Shown one piece after another: positions 1,970-21,833 of a stretch of 64,000 bases of DNA. Position 1 is the first letter of the stretch. Each line of letters opens with the position of its first letter. The stretch is from a virus (Duplodnaviria; Caudoviricetes): positions 32,001 to 96,000 of the IMG/VR virus record IMGVR_UViG_3300025723_000017. The stretch is one strand, 5' to 3'. The notes beneath the pieces are model-generated. The model had not been told where the DNA came from. It saw nothing but the letters and a program-made list of their open reading frames with translations, and made no database searches. The position numbers were made by a program, and so were the translations under genes.

Positions 1970-2060
1970 TATAAATATTGCTAAGTATTTGTATAGCTCC
2001 TGCATCGTCCTAACTACGATGCATTTTACCAGGCACCTGTAAAATGGTGCCTGTTTTTTT
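1970..2060 (+). ncRNA. candidate late small RNA ending in an intrinsic terminator
   Basis: TATAAATA at 1970, hairpin 2001-2023, terminator CAGGCACC/GGTGCCTG + T run at 2030-2060. Confidence 0.35.
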
Positions 2061-2094
2061 GACTTTGCAGAGTCAAATATGTTACTATATCTGT

Positions 2095-3555
2095 ATGAAA
2101 ACTGCAACAATAATAATTAAAGATGAAGTAAATATTAAAATTGAAGGACTTGATCTTGACGCACGCAAGAAATTAGTTAGTACATTTAAATATGATGTAC
2201 CAGGTGCTAGGTATCAACCATCAGTTAGATTAGGGCGTTGGGATGGCAAAGTTGCTTATTTTCAACTAGGCGGAAGCACATATACTAACTTGCTACCAGA
2301 AATCGTGCCTATACTAGAAAATTTTAATTATGATTTTTTGATTGATGATCAACGAGAATATCAAACAAATTTCACATTCGAGCGTGTAACTGAAGATACA
2401 TTTGCACATATTAACTGGGCAGATGGTCATCCGATGGCAGGGCAACCAATTAAATTGCGTGACTATCAAGTTGAAATTGTCAACAATTTTTTAGAAAATC
2501 CTCAGGCTATTCAGGAAATTGCCACTGGTGCAGGTAAAACTATTATGACAGCGGCATTAAGCCAACGTTGCGAAGCACACGGCCGTACTGTTGTAATTGT
2601 ACCCAATAAATCACTCGTTACACAAACAGAAAAAGACTATCGAGGCTTGGGATTAGATGTTGGTGTTTACTTTGGTGATAGGAAAGACATAGGAAAAACC
2701 CATACAATATGTACTTGGCAAAGTCTAAATATACTATTAAAAAATACAAAAAATCACGAAGCAGACATAACAATACATGAATTTTTAGAGAATGTAGTAT
2801 GTATAATGGTTGACGAGGTACACATGGCCAAGGCCGATGCTCTTAAGACATTATTAACTGGAGTGATGAGTCGTATCCCAATTCGTTGGGGACTGACTGG
2901 CACAGTACCTAAAGAAGCATTTGAATTTCAAGCACTAAAATGTAGTTTGGGTGCAGTCATTAATCAATTATCTGCTAGTGAATTGCAAGACAGAGGTGTA
3001 TTGGCACAATGTCATGTAAATATAGTACAGCTGGTCGACCACGCAGAATTTGCAAATTATCAAAGCGAATTAAAATTTTTATTAGAAGATAGTAAACGTT
3101 TAGAAACAATATCCAAATTGGTTGCTAATGTAAACCAAACAGGAAATACATTAGTATTAGTGGATCGTGTTGCAGCAGGGCACGCATTAGTAGCTCTGTT
3201 AGGTGATCGTGCTGTATTTGTATCAGGTGCAACAAAAGGAACAAAACGCGATGAAGAATATGCAGAAGTTGCAATCAGTGATGATAAGATTATTGTGGCT
3301 ACCTATGGTGTTGCCGCTGTGGGTATTAATATCCCTAGGATTTTTAATTTGGTTCTTGTTGAACCCGGAAAGAGCTTTGTCCGCGTTATTCAAAGCATTG
3401 GGCGTGGCATAAGAAAAGCTGAAGATAAAGATCATGTACAAATTTGGGATATCACCAGTACTTGTAAGTTTGCTAAAAGACATTTAACTAAGAGAAAAGT
3501 TTTCTATCGCGACGCCAATTATCCGTTTACACAAGAGAAGTTGGAATGGAAATAA
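2095..3555 (+). CDS. uvsW: UvsW-like superfamily 2 helicase
   Basis: LRDYQ, ATGAGKT, DEVH, GLTGT, QSIGRGIR motifs; RLGRWDGK N-terminal region; start moved to MKTA downstream of terminator. Confidence 0.85.
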   Translation: MKTATIIIKDEVNIKIEGLDLDARKKLVSTFKYDVPGARYQPSVRLGRWDGKVAYFQLGGSTYTNLLPEIVPILENFNYDFLIDDQREYQTNFTFERVTEDTFAHINWADGHPMAGQPIKLRDYQVEIVNNFLENPQAIQEIATGAGKTIMTAALSQRCEAHGRTVVIVPNKSLVTQTEKDYRGLGLDVGVYFGDRKDIGKTHTICTWQSLNILLKNTKNHEADITIHEFLENVVCIMVDEVHMAKADALKTLLTGVMSRIPIRWGLTGTVPKEAFEFQALKCSLGAVINQLSASELQDRGVLAQCHVNIVQLVDHAEFANYQSELKFLLEDSKRLETISKLVANVNQTGNTLVLVDRVAAGHALVALLGDRAVFVSGATKGTKRDEEYAEVAISDDKIIVATYGVAAVGINIPRIFNLVLVEPGKSFVRVIQSIGRGIRKAEDKDHVQIWDITSTCKFAKRHLTKRKVFYRDANYPFTQEKLEWK

Positions 3556-3610
3556 AGTGGTTGCTATACGTCGACATATACTTTATAATATCACTACACG
3601 GAGAAATAAA

Positions 3611-4111
3611 ATTAGAATTTTAACACTTGACAATGAACCTTATGACTTAGATCATTTACCTGACGAAATAGATGATATGCGATTTAGTATTTTAGACAAT
3701 TCTAATCCGCAAGACCCTGACTATCACTACATACCATTAATATTTTTGGAAAGTTTTAATAGTCCTGCGTTAGTTTTACAAATAGGCAAATATAAAATTC
3801 GAATGCCAGTTGATTGGCAATTGCTTATTGGTGATCCGGATGCTGGAGACTTAGAAGTTATACCGTTATCAGCTCTTAACGATAGAGGTTTCAAAGCGTT
3901 TCAATTTAATCCCTTGTCTAGTTTTAGACCAAGTTTTTTGGACGTTGAAATTTTAGATGTATATCAGGATGTAGCATGGTACGCTCCAAAACTTAAAAAT
4001 GGACAGTTATTGTGTATTCCATTAGGGGAAGGTAGTAAACCTGAGTGCGTATATTTTGTTAAAGATATTAGTCGCACTTGTGAAATAGTTAATTACAGCA
4101 AGTCCTTTTAA
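3611..4111 (+). CDS. hypothetical protein, probable ATT start
   Basis: Promoter at 3561-3589 lies inside the GTG-started ORF; GGAG SD 7 nt before in-frame ATT. Confidence 0.6.
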   Translation: MRILTLDNEPYDLDHLPDEIDDMRFSILDNSNPQDPDYHYIPLIFLESFNSPALVLQIGKYKIRMPVDWQLLIGDPDAGDLEVIPLSALNDRGFKAFQFNPLSSFRPSFLDVEILDVYQDVAWYAPKLKNGQLLCIPLGEGSKPECVYFVKDISRTCEIVNYSKSF

Positions 4112-4112
4112 T

Positions 4113-4331
4113 ATGGCAAATATTTTCGAACAATATAATCCAGATGAAGAACCCATTAAACCTAATCGCATAGCCGTTAAAGAAAAAATGGTTATTGATT
4201 TAGAAAGCATGGTTAGAAATCTTCAAGCTGCAAATGAAAAAAATGTAAGAATTATTAATAAAATGGAACGCGACATTGTACGTCTCAAAGATCAAATTAG
4301 CCAATTAGCAGGTGCAATTAAACGTGGATAA
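4113..4331 (+). CDS. coiled-coil hypothetical protein
   Basis: Tightly packed ORF with heptad pattern. Confidence 0.7.
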   Translation: MANIFEQYNPDEEPIKPNRIAVKEKMVIDLESMVRNLQAANEKNVRIINKMERDIVRLKDQISQLAGAIKRG

Positions 4332-4764
4332 ACTTAGTATTGCAAATGAAATGGCATGTTTTGATCGTAAAGATCGTAAATTTTACGATAATCTTACTGA
4401 TGAAGAGCGTAAAAAATTTAGCAATTATCTAATGATTCGCTGGGGTAGTAGTGTGCAAGGAAGTTCTGAATTACAAGAATATTATCTAATTGCCACTAAT
4501 GAAAGATTGAATAAACATTTCTTTGACATTAATAAGCATCCTAAGTTACAATGGTTATGTTCTACTACAGTAAGTCCTGATATGGGAACGTATCGACACA
4601 ATTGGATTTCTAATAAGAAAAAGGATATTGCATCTGGTGGCATTACAAAACAATTAATTGAACTATTTCCCAATTTAAAAAATGACGAAATTGAACTAAT
4701 GGCTAAAATTAATACTAAGAAAGACATTGATAATTATTTAAAAGAATTGGGTCGTGACAAGTGA
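4324..4764 (+). CDS. possible clamp-loader small subunit (gp62-like)
   Basis: Size, 'YLMIRW', 'KLQW', 'HNWI..KK' pattern reminiscent of gp62-type proteins; replication context. Confidence 0.4.
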   Translation: MDKLSIANEMACFDRKDRKFYDNLTDEERKKFSNYLMIRWGSSVQGSSELQEYYLIATNERLNKHFFDINKHPKLQWLCSTTVSPDMGTYRHNWISNKKKDIASGGITKQLIELFPNLKNDEIELMAKINTKKDIDNYLKELGRDK

Positions 4765-5435
4765 GTTATATCTGTCAATATTGTAAAAAAAACTTTGTAA
4801 AAGAATCTAGTTTGACTGTGCATTCTTGTGAACCAAGACGCAGGCGACAGGAAAAAGATGAAATAGGAGTACGATTAGGTTTCCATGCATACTTGAAATT
4901 TTATGAATTGACACAAGGATCATCTAAATTAAAGACATATGATAATTTTTGTGAAAGCCCTTACTATAAAGCATTTGTAAAATTTGGTAGATATTGCGCA
5001 AACACTCGTGTTATTAATCCAGCTCGATTCACAGAATGGATATTAAAACAAAACAAAAAATTAGACTATTGGTGCAGTGATAAGTTATACGAAGAATATC
5101 TTTTATTTTATCTCAAAGTTGAAACAATGGAAGATGCACTGACTAGGGCCATTGAACATGCAATAACTTGGGGAGAAGAAAAGGATTCTCCGCCTAACGG
5201 ATATTTGCGCTATGGTAATCATAATGCTATTGCACAAGCTATATTAACGGGCAAAATCAGTCCGTGGGTATTATATAATTGTGAATCTGGACAAAAATTT
5301 TTAGCACAGTTAAATACTGAACATCAATCTATGATATGGCCATATATTGATCCTGATGTATGGAATAAAAAATTGAAAGAAGATCCAGCCAATCGTGCAG
5401 CAGCACAAGAATTACTTAAGAGAGCCGGCTGGTAA
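4761..5435 (+). CDS. N-terminal zinc-finger protein
   Basis: CQYC...H.C motif. Confidence 0.65.
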   Translation: MSYICQYCKKNFVKESSLTVHSCEPRRRRQEKDEIGVRLGFHAYLKFYELTQGSSKLKTYDNFCESPYYKAFVKFGRYCANTRVINPARFTEWILKQNKKLDYWCSDKLYEEYLLFYLKVETMEDALTRAIEHAITWGEEKDSPPNGYLRYGNHNAIAQAILTGKISPWVLYNCESGQKFLAQLNTEHQSMIWPYIDPDVWNKKLKEDPANRAAAQELLKRAGW

Positions 5436-6034
5436 TGAGCGCAGATGTTGATTTAGATTTAGCTGATAGAGAACAAGTTCTAAAACTTATTAGAGCAATT
5501 CCGGCGTGTCAACTTAATCAAGGACAAGTTAGAAGACATAATTCAGGCATTTATGTAACTGACATTCCTTATGATCCATTGAATCAATGTGCAGCAATAG
5601 ACTACGAAACTGCCGAAAAACGCGGATATTTTAAGATAGATTTATTGAATATGTCGGTATATCAACTTATAAAATCTCAACAACACTATGATGAGTTATT
5701 GGGTAAGGAACCTGATTGGCAACGTCTTTGGACTGATGTTCAATGGGCTAAACAAATTGTTCATATAGGTAACTATACTGATTTATTGGCAAAGATGAAG
5801 CCGGATTCCATCACACGTATGGCAGCATTTATAGCTATTATACGTCCAGGTAAAGCACATTTGCAAAATCGACCATGGAAGGAAGTTTTTGATTCAGTAT
5901 GGGATGGTGATGCTAGTCTTGGGTTTGTGTTCAAACATTCGCATTCGATTTCCTATGCGGCACTTGTTGCGCTACATATGAATCTCTTAGACGAAAAAAC
6001 AGTTACTAGTCCGGCATCCGGCGTACAAGAGTAA
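5435..6034 (+). CDS. minimal DnaE/Pol III alpha-like polymerase core
   Basis: DVDLD, RHNSG, GYFKIDLL, IIRPG, FKHSHSISYA in the order of the DnaE motifs. Confidence 0.75.
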   Translation: MSADVDLDLADREQVLKLIRAIPACQLNQGQVRRHNSGIYVTDIPYDPLNQCAAIDYETAEKRGYFKIDLLNMSVYQLIKSQQHYDELLGKEPDWQRLWTDVQWAKQIVHIGNYTDLLAKMKPDSITRMAAFIAIIRPGKAHLQNRPWKEVFDSVWDGDASLGFVFKHSHSISYAALVALHMNLLDEKTVTSPASGVQE

Positions 6035-6410
6035 TGGATTTTCTTTTGGATTTCTTACGGGCTATTTCAGCTAAACTACATGCTGGTCCATGTATTATTT
6101 CTAAATCTTTATTGGCAAACGTTCTAGTATAACCTCTAAATGGTTCCCATTCCTGTTTAAGAAATATGTTAATGGGAATGCTTCTATTGCTTTCCCACCA
6201 CCAAACATTAGCTAATTCTAAAAATAATTTTTTAGCTTCTATATTGACTATGCTGCCAAAATCGTACATGGTGGTGATAGCATCATCGCGGTTCTGAATT
6301 ATCCCTACATATTCTTGGGAAGCATACACACACAGCGTTATAAACGGATATTTTTCGCTTAATTGATTAAAAATTTCTTTATTCATTGAATGGCAGTTAT
6401 CATATAGCAA
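6006..6410 (-). CDS. hypothetical protein
   Basis: ORF with TAAATA-type site at its 5' end on the minus strand. Confidence 0.7.
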   Translation of the reverse strand: MLYDNCHSMNKEIFNQLSEKYPFITLCVYASQEYVGIIQNRDDAITTMYDFGSIVNIEAKKLFLELANVWWWESNRSIPINIFLKQEWEPFRGYTRTFANKDLEIIHGPACSLAEIARKKSKRKSITLVRRMPD

Positions 6411-7642: not shown

Positions 7643-7732
7643 ATGAATTACTATGTATATCTGTATCTGCGTAAAAACGATCTAACACCTTACTATGTTG
7701 GTAAAGGCAAAGGCTCGCGAGCATATGATTGA
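7643..7732 (+). pseudogene. 29-codon remnant of a GIY-YIG homing endonuclease
   Basis: MNYYVYLYLRKNDLTPYYVGKGKGSRAYD*. Confidence 0.75.
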
Positions 7733-8714
7733 TATCTTGTCTTTTTTGCCAGCTAAACGTAAACAAACATCAAGCGGGTGGTGGAGTTTTTGCGCGCCGT
7801 GTTGCATACATAACGGAGATAGTCAGGATCGACGTATGCGTGGCGGACTCAAAGTCAACGCAGATGGATGGAGTTATCATTGTTTTAATTGTAATTTTAC
7901 AGCCAGTTTTGTATTAGGACGCAATCTTTCTATTAAGGCTCGTAAATTATTATCGTGGGTTAATGTTCCGCAAGAAGAAATCGAACGTGTTAATCTAGAA
8001 AGTATGAAGCATCGATCTATGGAAGGATTGATTCACGATCGTAATCAAACAGCTGAGGCATTATTAGGAATTCATTTCAAAGAAAGTGCTTTGCCGCCGA
8101 GTTCGATTCTATTGGATAATCAAGATCATGCTAAGGAGCTAGATTATTTAAAATCTAGACATATTCCAACAGATTATCCTTTTTTAGTTCGAACAGAAAA
8201 TGTCGGGATACACTGGTCACGGCCTCACATTATAATCCCATTTACATATAAGAATATTATAGTAGGACATACTAATAGATTTTTAGATAATAAAACTCCC
8301 AAATACATAAATTCTATACAATCTGGATATGTATTCGGTACTGATTTACAACAGACTGACTGGCAATATGTAATTGTAGTCGAAGGAGTGTTTGACGCAT
8401 TAAGCATCAATGGACTAGCAGTTATGCACAGCACAATTAATGATGCACAAGTCAGGCTAATAAGAAATTTAGGAAAAGAAATAATCGTAGTTCCAGATCA
8501 AGATTTGGCTGGTATGGAATTAGTAGATCGTGCAATAGAATTAGGATGGGCAGTTAGTATTCCTGATTGGCCTGACAATGTTAAAGATGTAAATGATGCA
8601 GTAATAAAAATTGGCAGGATTGCAACACTGCTAACTATATTGCAATCTAGAGAAACTAGTAAAATTAAAATTGAATTGAGGAAAAGACAACTTGTTAAAC
8701 GATTACGGCATTGA
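7725..8714 (+). CDS. DNA primase
   Basis: Zn-binding CxxC...HCFNC, PKY, TOPRIM EGVFD, DQD, KDVND. Confidence 0.9.
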   Translation: MIDILSFLPAKRKQTSSGWWSFCAPCCIHNGDSQDRRMRGGLKVNADGWSYHCFNCNFTASFVLGRNLSIKARKLLSWVNVPQEEIERVNLESMKHRSMEGLIHDRNQTAEALLGIHFKESALPPSSILLDNQDHAKELDYLKSRHIPTDYPFLVRTENVGIHWSRPHIIIPFTYKNIIVGHTNRFLDNKTPKYINSIQSGYVFGTDLQQTDWQYVIVVEGVFDALSINGLAVMHSTINDAQVRLIRNLGKEIIVVPDQDLAGMELVDRAIELGWAVSIPDWPDNVKDVNDAVIKIGRIATLLTILQSRETSKIKIELRKRQLVKRLRH

Positions 8715-10086
8715 CACACAACGATTATTTTTAGAGATGATGTTACACGACGCAGAATCATTTGTACGTGTGCAAAACATTTATAATCCAGAAAATTTTG
8801 ATCGAAGCATTAAACCAGCGGCTGAATTTATTAAAAAACACTACGAAGATTATAGTTCATTGCCTATACTGGCACAAGTATCAGCTGCGTCTGGAGTAAA
8901 ACTTACAGAAATTCCTGAATTACCCGATGGTAGTTTGAATTGGTTTATGGAGGAATTTGAAAAATTTACACAGCGGCAGGAATTGGAACGTGCTATTCTT
9001 AAGTCTGCAGACTTATTAGAAAAAGGTGAATTTGGGCCTGTTGAAAAATTAATCAAAGATGCAGTACAGATTAGTTTACAAAAGGACATGGGAACAGATT
9101 ATTTTTCTAATCCTAAAGAACGCAATGACAAATATTTTAATAGTGGGGGACAAGTCAGTACAGGATGGCCTAGCTTAGATAAAATATTATATGGTGGGTT
9201 TAGTCGCGGTGAATTGAATATTTTTGCTGGTGGATCAGGTTCAGGTAAATCATTGGTTATGATGAATATTGCCATTAGTTGGTTGCAACAGGGACTAAGT
9301 GGTGCATATATTACGCTAGAACTTAGTGAAGAATTAGTAGGTTTAAGAACTGATGCTATGCTTTCAGGCATGTCAACCAAGGACATTAGAAAAGATTTAG
9401 ATACCGCAGAATTAAAAGTTAGGATGTTTGGAAAAAAAGCAGGGCAATATCGAGTCAAAGGATTGCCAGCACAGAGTAATGTCAATGATGTAAGGGCATA
9501 TTTAAAGGAAGTGCAGGTACAAACGGGTATTGCAATTGATTTCGTAATGGTAGATTACTTGGATTTGTTAATGCCAGTTTCGGCTAAAGTTAGTCCAAAT
9601 GATTTATTTGTTAAAGACAAATATGTATCGGAAGAATTACGTAACTTGGCTAAGGAATTGAATATATTATTTGTCACAGCAAGTCAATTGAATCGTTCAG
9701 CTGTAGAAGAAATTGAGTTTGACCACAGTCATATTTCAGGTGGTATTAGTAAAATTAACACAGCAGATAATGTATTTGGTATTTTTACAAGTCGAGCTAT
9801 GAAAGAACGTGGGCGTTATCAATTACAATGTATGAAAACACGTACTAGTAATGGAACTGGGCAAAAAGTTGAGCTAGAATACAATGTAGAAACTATGAGA
9901 ATTACTGACTTACCAGAAGAAGCAAGCCCAGTAAGTTCATTTAAACGTCCTAATGTATTAGATAATATAAAAACACAAAGTCGAGTAGTTGACGGTACAT
10001 CGATGTCGTCAGAAACTGGAAAAATTACAGCCGAAGTGCAAAGTAATAAATTAAAATCTATGTTAGCGCAAATTAAAAGTGTATAA
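8692..10086 (+). CDS. DnaB-like replicative helicase (gp41-like)
   Basis: GGSGSGKS, TLE, VDYLDL, TASQLNR. Confidence 0.92.
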   Translation: MLNDYGIDTQRLFLEMMLHDAESFVRVQNIYNPENFDRSIKPAAEFIKKHYEDYSSLPILAQVSAASGVKLTEIPELPDGSLNWFMEEFEKFTQRQELERAILKSADLLEKGEFGPVEKLIKDAVQISLQKDMGTDYFSNPKERNDKYFNSGGQVSTGWPSLDKILYGGFSRGELNIFAGGSGSGKSLVMMNIAISWLQQGLSGAYITLELSEELVGLRTDAMLSGMSTKDIRKDLDTAELKVRMFGKKAGQYRVKGLPAQSNVNDVRAYLKEVQVQTGIAIDFVMVDYLDLLMPVSAKVSPNDLFVKDKYVSEELRNLAKELNILFVTASQLNRSAVEEIEFDHSHISGGISKINTADNVFGIFTSRAMKERGRYQLQCMKTRTSNGTGQKVELEYNVETMRITDLPEEASPVSSFKRPNVLDNIKTQSRVVDGTSMSSETGKITAEVQSNKLKSMLAQIKSV

Positions 10087-20193: not shown

Positions 20194-20391
20194 ATGTTGA
20201 CATTTGTAAAATCATTAGTTATACTAGCAGTATTAGTAGGCACATACCATGGTATGTCATGGGCAATTGACAAAAAAGCCGATGAAAAAGCATTATCTAT
20301 GATAATGACTGAATATCAAACAAGTGCTCGCGAAGATGCAAGAGATCAGGCAATGAAAGCAATCGTAGATTCATATGTAGCTAAAAAATAA
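20194..20391 (+). CDS. small membrane-anchored protein
   Basis: SD AAGGA, N-terminal hydrophobic helix. Confidence 0.65.
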   Translation: MLTFVKSLVILAVLVGTYHGMSWAIDKKADEKALSMIMTEYQTSAREDARDQAMKAIVDSYVAKK

Positions 20392-21833
20392 TGGCCTATT
20401 CAGATAAAGTTTTAGATCATTATGAAAATCCTCGCAATGTGGGTTCATTTGCCAAAGACGATGCTGATGTTGGCACAGGCATGGTAGGAGCTCCTGCGTG
20501 TGGAGATGTAATGAAGTTACAGATAAAGGTATCAGATGGCGTTATTACAGATGCAAAGTTTAAGACCTACGGATGTTTAACTAGTAATACCCCTGTTAAT
20601 ACTCCAACATGCGTTAAAAAAATCAAAGATTTAAATATCGGAGATGAGGTACTGGCTTGGGATGGCAATCGCATTGTTAATCAAAAAATAAGAGATATAA
20701 TCAAACATTCAGTTGATATCAGTGATTTGTTGGTAGTTTCATTCCAACGAGAAACAAGTAGAAAAAATATCAATCCCGGCACCTTTTCGTTGATTTGTAC
20801 CAAAGAACACATATTTTGGAATGCCGATAATAATCCTGTAGAAGCACAACAACTACAGGTGGGGCAAGAATTATATGAAATAACCGAACATGAGTTAAGA
20901 ATTCTTACCAACAATAGACATCGAACAGAAATTAAACAGAAAAATAGCGCAAGAATGAAAAAATGGAACACCGAATTTGATCATTCTGTATTGCCACAGA
21001 ATCAACCCGGATATGTATGTAAGAACCCAGAAGCTAAAAAGCAACGCTCCAGTGCTGCTTCAATTAAAAACTGGCAAGATCCTAGTTATATTGAAAAGTG
21101 GCAACAAGGAATGGCACAACGAGATTGGTCTAAACCTACTAGTATTGAAAAAAAATATATTGATTTATTTGAAGAAAATAATGTAGCGGCAAGATGGAGT
21201 GCTGGAACAATATGGATTCAAACCACATCAGGCCCCGCAAGTCCGGATTTTATTGTTCCCGGCAAGAAAAAATGTATAGAAGTTTATACAAAGAAAATGC
21301 CAAAGTTTATGCAAGATAGATCAGAAGAATCGGATTATGTCCAAAAAAGAAGTCAACAACTTGCAACAGCAGGATACGATTCATTATTTTTGTCAGTAGA
21401 AGAAATTGAACAGGCACTGCCTAAGGTACAGAATTTTATACATAATGGCATGAAAATTATCGATATTTCTCCAATCACACATCATAATCAACTACGAGGA
21501 TGTGAGCGTGATGACAAAAATGTTGTAGTATATGATTTAAAATTAGAGGATGGTGCCCATGTATTTTTTACAAATAGAGTCGGCTCACACAACTGCGGAT
21601 CAGCAATCGCAAGTAGTTCTTTGGTCACTGAATGGGTCAAAGGAAAATCTCTCGAAGCTGCTGGATGTATTAGAAATAGCGACATTGCCCAAGAACTGGC
21701 ACTTCCACCAGTCAAAATCCACTGTTCAATCCTTGCCGAAGATGCAATTAAAGCAGCAATAGCTGATTATAGAAACAAACATGAAACTACCAATAGTTCG
21801 ATGGCCAGATCCAGTACTACTGACACCATGTAA
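20391..21833 (+). CDS. iscU: Fe-S scaffold IscU interrupted by an intein
   Basis: MAYSDKVLDHYENPRN, APACGD, FKTYG|CGSAIASSS, LPPVKIHC. Confidence 0.95.
   Translation: MAYSDKVLDHYENPRNVGSFAKDDADVGTGMVGAPACGDVMKLQIKVSDGVITDAKFKTYGCLTSNTPVNTPTCVKKIKDLNIGDEVLAWDGNRIVNQKIRDIIKHSVDISDLLVVSFQRETSRKNINPGTFSLICTKEHIFWNADNNPVEAQQLQVGQELYEITEHELRILTNNRHRTEIKQKNSARMKKWNTEFDHSVLPQNQPGYVCKNPEAKKQRSSAASIKNWQDPSYIEKWQQGMAQRDWSKPTSIEKKYIDLFEENNVAARWSAGTIWIQTTSGPASPDFIVPGKKKCIEVYTKKMPKFMQDRSEESDYVQKRSQQLATAGYDSLFLSVEEIEQALPKVQNFIHNGMKIIDISPITHHNQLRGCERDDKNVVVYDLKLEDGAHVFFTNRVGSHNCGSAIASSSLVTEWVKGKSLEAAGCIRNSDIAQELALPPVKIHCSILAEDAIKAAIADYRNKHETTNSSMARSSTTDTM
20574..21593 (+). mobile_element. 340-aa intein with Vsr/DUF559-like endonuclease domain
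   Basis: Starts CL, block B CTKEH, block F VYDL, ends SHN before Cys; internal 'PTSIE','PDF','IEV'. Confidence 0.93.

Follow-up and report, generated by a model that had tools for sequence, protein, structure and literature searches.

The open reading frame at positions 5435-6034 of the analysed DNA very probably encodes the C-terminal unit (C-unit) of a split minimal Pol III alpha, a putative two-chain auxiliary polymerase of the group 2.2 jumbo phages, which are T4-like phages of the RaK2/PA5oct/Atu_ph07 type. The C-unit comprises the second half of the palm and a reduced fingers domain, and the first half of the palm is encoded by a distant gene of the same genome (N-unit). Each half bears a complementary and invariant part of a Pol-beta-type nucleotidyltransferase site. 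The stretch of DNA analysed here, referred to as the window, has a length of 64 kb and was taken from an IMG/VR viral contig of 154 kb (bases 32001-96000), the completeness of which is estimated at 45%.

Results

Sequence motifs and conservation of the C-unit

The reading frame 5435-6034 (plus strand) runs uninterrupted from an ATG start to a TAA stop. The initial annotation had described its 199-aa product as a protein with all three catalytic aspartates and five motifs in the order of DnaE, and both statements held. DVDLD (residues 4-8, nt 5444-5458) contains the first two catalytic carboxylates, which correspond by alignment to D401 and D403 of the E. coli enzyme. RHNSG (residues 34-38, nt 5534-5548) represents the HxxG palm strand, HAAGV in DnaE, and FKIDLL (residues 66-71, nt 5630-5647) carries K67 and the third catalytic carboxylate, D69, the counterparts of E. 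coli K553 and D555. The two fingers motifs, IIRPG (residues 135-139, nt 5837-5851) and FKHSHSISYA (residues 166-175, nt 5930-5959), correspond to E. coli R639-P640-G641 and F756-NKSHSAAYA, respectively. All five motifs lie on the plus strand.

The C-unit matched phrog_11778, a family annotated as 'DNA polymerase', with an E-value of 4e-54, and phrog_405, a full-length DnaE-type profile, with an E-value of 1.2e-5, while its sole Pfam match was a sub-threshold one to the fingers. A single-sequence phmmer search of the PDB gave no match for the C-unit, and the family profile was used instead. With this profile, built from 83 relatives, nine PDB matches were obtained, all of them Pol III alpha (E 3.5e-6 to 1e-4), and the next match followed at E 0.93. 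In the HMMER alignment to 2hnh_A, KIDLL coincided with E. coli K553-F-D555 (region 551-558), IRPG with R639-P-G641, and FKxSH with F756-N-K-S-H760 (region 739-769). The comparison with a full-length metagenomic DnaE by hhalign gave a probability of 91% (E 1e-6). All five motifs also lined up in an E-INS-i alignment with two full-size DnaE proteins, in which DVDLD was aligned to PDFDID and RHNSG to HAGG/HAAG. The resemblance of the C-unit to DnaE is beyond chance.

The spacing between DxD and HxxG is about 27 residues in the C-unit versus about 107 in E. coli, and that between RPG and FxKSH is about 28 versus about 115, with about 87 fingers residues deleted. The C-terminus lies about 25 residues past the FxKSH motif, close to E. 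coli residue 816, and the protein contains no PHP, thumb, clamp-binding or OB region, much as the initial annotation had stated.

Conservation was analysed with 83 full-length C-unit representatives, which were 25-62% identical to the 5435-6034 product and had lengths of 183-231 aa (median 196). D4, D6, K67, D69 and P138 were invariant (83/83); D8, H35 and G38 were kept in 82 and R137 in 81 of the 83 proteins, and K167, H170 and A175 were at least 90% conserved. The family contained 359 clusters at 50% identity, and 6418 clusters at 90% identity within the near-length range. The extreme reduction compared with DnaE could be read as the mark of a decaying remnant or pseudo-enzyme. However, this divergent set keeps every catalytic residue unchanged at a stable length, and thousands of intact homologues exist. 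Decayed aspartates and variable lengths among the homologs, which the initial annotation had named as refuting its reading, were thus not seen. We consider a decaying remnant scarcely credible.

Predicted fold of the C-unit

The AlphaFold (AF2) model of the C-unit was obtained with a pLDDT of 94.7 and a pTM of 0.87. When the model was submitted to Foldseek, the top 13 matches were all C-family polymerases. An exhaustive comparison with 48,161 chains by VIA-align likewise placed C-family polymerases in the top seven positions, with Z-scores from 10.1 to 6.2 and 194-197 aligned residues, and the next match had a Z-score of 4.1. These seven included PolC, M. tuberculosis DnaE1, and the Taq and E. 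coli enzymes. Residues 1-199 of the model span residues 399-816 of E. coli alpha. The fold comparison with DnaE that had been proposed for this protein thus agreed with a C-family polymerase.

The N-unit, the other half of the palm

When the whole contig was searched in six frames with PF07733 and phrog_405, one further piece was detected besides the C-unit, a 173-aa reading frame on the minus strand at G000:141235-141756 (= L001:1498-2019). This N-unit is located 103 kb from the C-unit, on the opposite strand and outside the 64-kb window. PF07733 matched positions 24-95 with an E-value of 7e-8 in the six-frame search; the N-unit protein itself passed the curated cut-off of this Pfam family (E 6.4e-7) and matched phrog_11127 at E 3e-38. 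Its nucleotide-binding motif, GVGRGSS, was invariant in 44 of 44 relatives. The AF2 model of the N-unit had a pLDDT of 81.5, and its top seven structural matches were all C-family polymerases (Z 10.2-6.2), with residues 79-173 matching E. coli alpha 279-393. Placed side by side, the N-unit and C-unit models cover E. coli alpha 279-816 and meet at 393/399. The search for other DnaE parts in the genome, which the initial annotation had suggested together with a split C-family polymerase, was therefore successful.

N-unit residues 1-78 matched none of the DnaE structures. Conservation of this segment is poor among isolate phages, for which the tblastn alignments begin near residue 72, and the segment may represent an additional domain specific to the lineage. 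A gene for a GroES/gp31-like co-chaperonin (L001:605-997 = G000:140342-140734; Cpn10, E 1e-5; phrog_931, 'head morphogenesis') belongs to the minus-strand string of the N-unit and lies two genes downstream of it.

EFLR at the end of the N-unit was aligned by hhalign to FERFLNP of DnaE, just ahead of PDFDID, and MSADVDLD at the start of the C-unit, which begins three residues before DxD, was aligned to SMPDFDID. Trans-splicing of the two units by an intein was considered and rejected: both ends align directly to contiguous DnaE and leave no room for intein fragments, and therefore the halves are not spliced together.

The headline reading of the initial annotation, a miniature polymerase formed by the C-unit alone, has in its favour that the three carboxylates and the KxD lysine are all in one chain and that the AF2 model is compact and confident by itself. 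However, the C-unit is devoid of the GS nucleotide-binding element and of the first palm part, which are encoded by a separate gene and are invariant in the N-unit. Furthermore, the two units co-occur in phages and are fused in a natural protein, as described below. We regard a stand-alone C-unit enzyme as highly improbable, and a polymerase split between two chains as the better description.

Co-occurrence and natural fusion of the halves

The C-unit was found in 96 and the N-unit in 92 phage records, with nearly identical host breakdowns, and the cluster counts in the protein database were 6418 and 6438, respectively. Carriers among the isolated phages are jumbo phages of the RaK2, GAP32, 121Q, PA5oct, Atu_ph07, Phosso, XacN1 and SCTP-2 type. 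The two genes were in every case separated by tens to hundreds of kb, and in complete phage genomes by about 30-220 kb.

A representative search identified P0171, a natural metagenomic protein of 375 aa that has phrog_11127 at 8-180 followed by phrog_11778 at 190-374; its source is a single 2.4-kb ENA contig. PF07733 spans the junction of this protein with an E-value of 4.8e-16. In a quick maximum-likelihood tree, which was rooted with two full-size DnaE proteins and contains long branches, the mini C-units formed one clade (SH-aLRT 100). P0171 was placed deep within the split forms, where it grouped with a pair of stand-alone C-units (SH-aLRT 97). This nested position points to a secondary re-fusion of split halves.

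A word-indexed search, which is weak evidence, returned no longer forms of the C-unit. Scanning with P0171 gave no match in the viral contigs and only two full-size DnaE in the metagenome contigs. On metagenome contig OKRZ01000398.1 (L012:3366-7382), a full-size DnaE is present as two consecutive reading frames with a 66-nt gap, a 382-aa PHP-bearing part and then a 933-aa palm-to-OB part; this reflects either a frameshift or a DnaE split of a different kind.

Gene neighbourhood

The C-unit closes a string of densely packed genes on the plus strand. At the head of this string is a UvsW-type helicase (2044..3555), in which ResIII, DEAD, Helicase_C and UvsW_N domains were detected; its homologues in PA5oct and GAP32 occupy the equivalent position and share 47-48% identity with it. 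The helicase is followed, all on the plus strand, by a phrog_11279 protein (3557-4111), a 72-aa coiled-coil protein, a 150-aa phrog_11758 protein (4312..4764) that is a conserved neighbour, and a 224-aa protein whose N-terminal part contains a C2H2-like Zn finger (4761..5435; phrog_11058, E 2e-53; weak zf-C2H2). The phrog_11058 homologue stands directly upstream of the C-unit in PA5oct and nearby in Phosso and GAP32. The overlaps with the upstream genes that had been noticed initially are present in the sequence: the stop codon of the Zn-finger gene (5433-5435) and the ATG of the C-unit (5435-5437) form TAATG, and the GTG start of the Zn-finger gene and the stop of the 4312-4764 gene form GTGA at 4761-4764.

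Directly after the C-unit there are a small convergent gene (6006-6410) and a virion-type protein, and then, on the plus strand, a DNA primase (7695-8714; phrog_47, E 2e-36) and a DnaB/gp41-like helicase (8692-10086; phrog_19, E 4e-72). The order from UvsW through the Zn-finger protein and the C-unit to primase and DnaB is shared with Phosso, PA5oct and GAP32, with protein identities of 24-49%.

The neighbouring genes were considered as carriers of the missing DnaE parts. The genes 3557-4111, 4312-4764, 4761-5435 and 6006-6410 contained nothing DnaE-like by Pfam, NCBIfam and PHROG, and in the six-frame phrog_405 search of the whole contig only the N- and C-units matched. The 4324 and 4761 products, which the initial annotation had put forward as DnaE partners, are thus conserved neighbours of the C-unit without DnaE similarity. 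The gp62-like identity that had been given to 4312-4764 was not supported either: this gene had no match as gp62 in Pfam, NCBIfam or PHROG, and PF16790 (Phage_clamp_A) gave none in the contig at E<=10. The sole hint of gp62 was a language-model lead at rank 20, and PF16790 occurs in 11% of the members of that cluster.

Several other features of the window were recorded. Immediately upstream of the UvsW-type helicase lies the gene of a 336-aa protein (951-1961; phrog_1250, a family of unknown function; weak P-loop/AAA matches), the equivalent position of which is occupied by an epsilon-like exonuclease gene in GAP32. It is preceded by a terminator-like hairpin (621-638) and, directly after this hairpin, a perfect sigma-70 consensus promoter (644-672; TTGACA, 17-nt spacer, TATAAT). 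The first ATG of the UvsW-type reading frame, at 2044, falls within a hairpin (2030-2053) that is rich in GC and has a T-run, and the true start is probably the second ATG near 2095 (MKTATIII...). A 480-aa NifU/IscU-like reading frame (20391-21833) matched its PHROG in two separated stretches, which is compatible with an intein insertion.

Searches of the 154-kb contig (about 45% complete) detected no PHP domain (PF02811), no epsilon-type or RNase_T-type exonuclease, and no family B polymerase (PolB), either with PF00136 or by tblastn with the PolB of Phosso. Taken at face value, the lack of PolB matches in these 154 kb could mean that the split enzyme is the only replicative polymerase of this phage. 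This seems very improbable, because the contig covers less than half of the genome by the above estimate, relatives with both halves carry PolB, as in Phosso with its 1013-aa PolB, and a 370-residue core without clamp binding is unlikely to serve as the sole replicase of a genome of about 340 kb. As the contig is only about 45% complete, the companion PolB of this phage is assumed from the relatives, and the split enzyme is treated below as an auxiliary polymerase.

Discussion

A proposed two-chain polymerase beside the family B replicase

No intein is present to join the two chains, and therefore a non-covalent association of the N- and C-chains, which would rebuild one Pol-beta-type nucleotidyltransferase active site, is most likely. 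In such a heterodimer, the N-unit would supply the first half of the palm with the nucleotide-binding GVGRGSS, and the C-unit the metal-binding D4, D6 and D69, the lysine of KxD, and a shortened fingers domain containing RPG and FxKSH. The reconstituted enzyme would catalyse metal-dependent, template-directed nucleotidyl transfer. It would be small, template-dependent and auxiliary to the phage family B polymerase, and probably distributive, since low processivity is expected from the loss of the thumb, clamp-binding, HhH and OB parts. Primer extension, gap filling and recombination-dependent synthesis are plausible roles, and the position of the gene beside primase, helicase and UvsW agrees with primer extension or with synthesis linked to recombination. 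Synthesis on a template is not certain, however, because the parts that hold the primer-template in DnaE, namely the thumb and much of the fingers, are missing.

The same losses could be taken to mean that the N- and C-units form a repurposed nucleotidyltransferase, the second alternative of the initial annotation, in which the Pol-beta-type chemistry is used without copying a template. Such an enzyme might serve in tailing of DNA or RNA ends, in production of a nucleotide signal, or in modification of protein or DNA. In addition to the absent thumb, clamp-binding, HhH and OB parts and the deletion in the fingers, the presence of PolB, which already serves replication in these phages, speaks for this explanation. 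On the other hand, the RPG and FxKSH motifs are kept with at least 90% conservation, and the fingers, where these motifs reside in DnaE, are regarded as the template-DNA-binding part (Iyer et al. 2021, PMC7824862). The gene also lies within a conserved replication string adjoining primase, DnaB and UvsW. From these considerations, a repurposed transferase appears rather unlikely, and we favour the template-dependent auxiliary polymerase.

A more specific version of the auxiliary polymerase can be imagined, in which the mini Pol III is dedicated to primer extension or recombination restart, is held on DNA by its neighbours, and hands over to the family B replicase. The phrog_11058 Zn-finger protein and the phrog_11758 and phrog_11279 proteins would then take the place of the thumb and clamp-binding parts. 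This proposal is speculative, and we think it possible but not probable. If it is true, these phages would possess a two-polymerase replisome composed of a bacterial-type and an archaeo-eukaryotic-type enzyme.

Significance of the split mini Pol III

The split mini Pol III has a total of about 370 residues and is, to our knowledge, the smallest C-family polymerase core, with an active site to which two polypeptides contribute. Should it be active, it would define the minimal unit for catalysis in the family of bacterial replicases, and the phages would run C-family and B-family polymerases together. It is very common in environmental jumbo phages, with more than 6000 protein clusters for each half. 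In the literature searched, we found no biochemical study of any member. The precise mapping of the junction and the natural single-chain fusion P0171 may be useful for such work. In GenBank, the N-unit has long been labelled 'DNA polymerase III alpha subunit', and the C-unit is mostly 'hypothetical' or, in RefSeq, 'DNA polymerase'. The arrangement itself has already been published (Iyer et al. 2021, PMC7824862), and the present copy is a further example that is qualitatively nothing new.

Comparison with known systems

A minimal Pol III alpha specific to phages has been recognised by sequence analysis in the group 2.2 jumbo phages RaK2, GAP32, 121Q, PA5oct and Atu_ph07 (Iyer et al. 2021, Viruses 13:63; PMC7824862). 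It consists of two proteins encoded by distant genes, the N-terminal one binding NTP and the C-terminal one binding Mg and template, lacks the other Pol III domains, and accompanies a family B polymerase, with which, as the authors suggested, it may cooperate on one strand or in repair (PMC7824862). The present pair resembles this system in its two families (phrog_11127 and phrog_11778), in the split just ahead of DxD, in the distance between the genes, and in the T4-like replication neighbourhood. A C-unit of the expected size (about 190-200 aa) with the DxD, KxD and fingers motifs is present, and an N-unit with GRGS is encoded far away in the same genome; no PHP and no extra phrog_405 match were found in the 154 kb of the approximately 45% complete contig. 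The C-unit is 32-42% identical to those of PA5oct, Phosso, Atu_ph07 and GAP32. Unlike the published cases, it comes from a fragment of an uncultured phage, of which the closest isolate shows 42% identity, and no family B polymerase is found on this incomplete contig. The 103 kb between the halves exceed the 34-44 kb of GAP32 and PA5oct but fall short of the distance in Phosso, about 224 kb.

With the cellular enzymes DnaE and PolC (2HNH, 5FKU, 2HPI, 5LEW and 3F2B), the split enzyme shares the Pol-beta-type palm with the DxD and KxD carboxylates, the GS motif, the RPG and FNKSH fingers motifs, and a structural match of Z 6-10 over both halves. In contrast to these enzymes, the three-carboxylate palm is divided between two chains of about 370 residues in total, instead of 1100-1450 in one chain. 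The PHP domain, absent from both units, is missing along with the thumb, clamp-binding, HhH, OB and tau-binding parts and the deleted portion of the fingers.

The split DnaE of cyanobacteria is also encoded by two distant genes, but it is divided at another site and employs a split intein, which the phage proteins do not have. Replisomes with two polymerases are found in Firmicutes (DnaE and PolC) and in eukaryotes (Pol alpha with Pol delta/epsilon). By analogy, the phage would encode a second, smaller polymerase beside the primase and helicase, alongside the main replicase. The comparison is an analogy only, and a primer hand-off would be hypothetical for the split mini Pol III.
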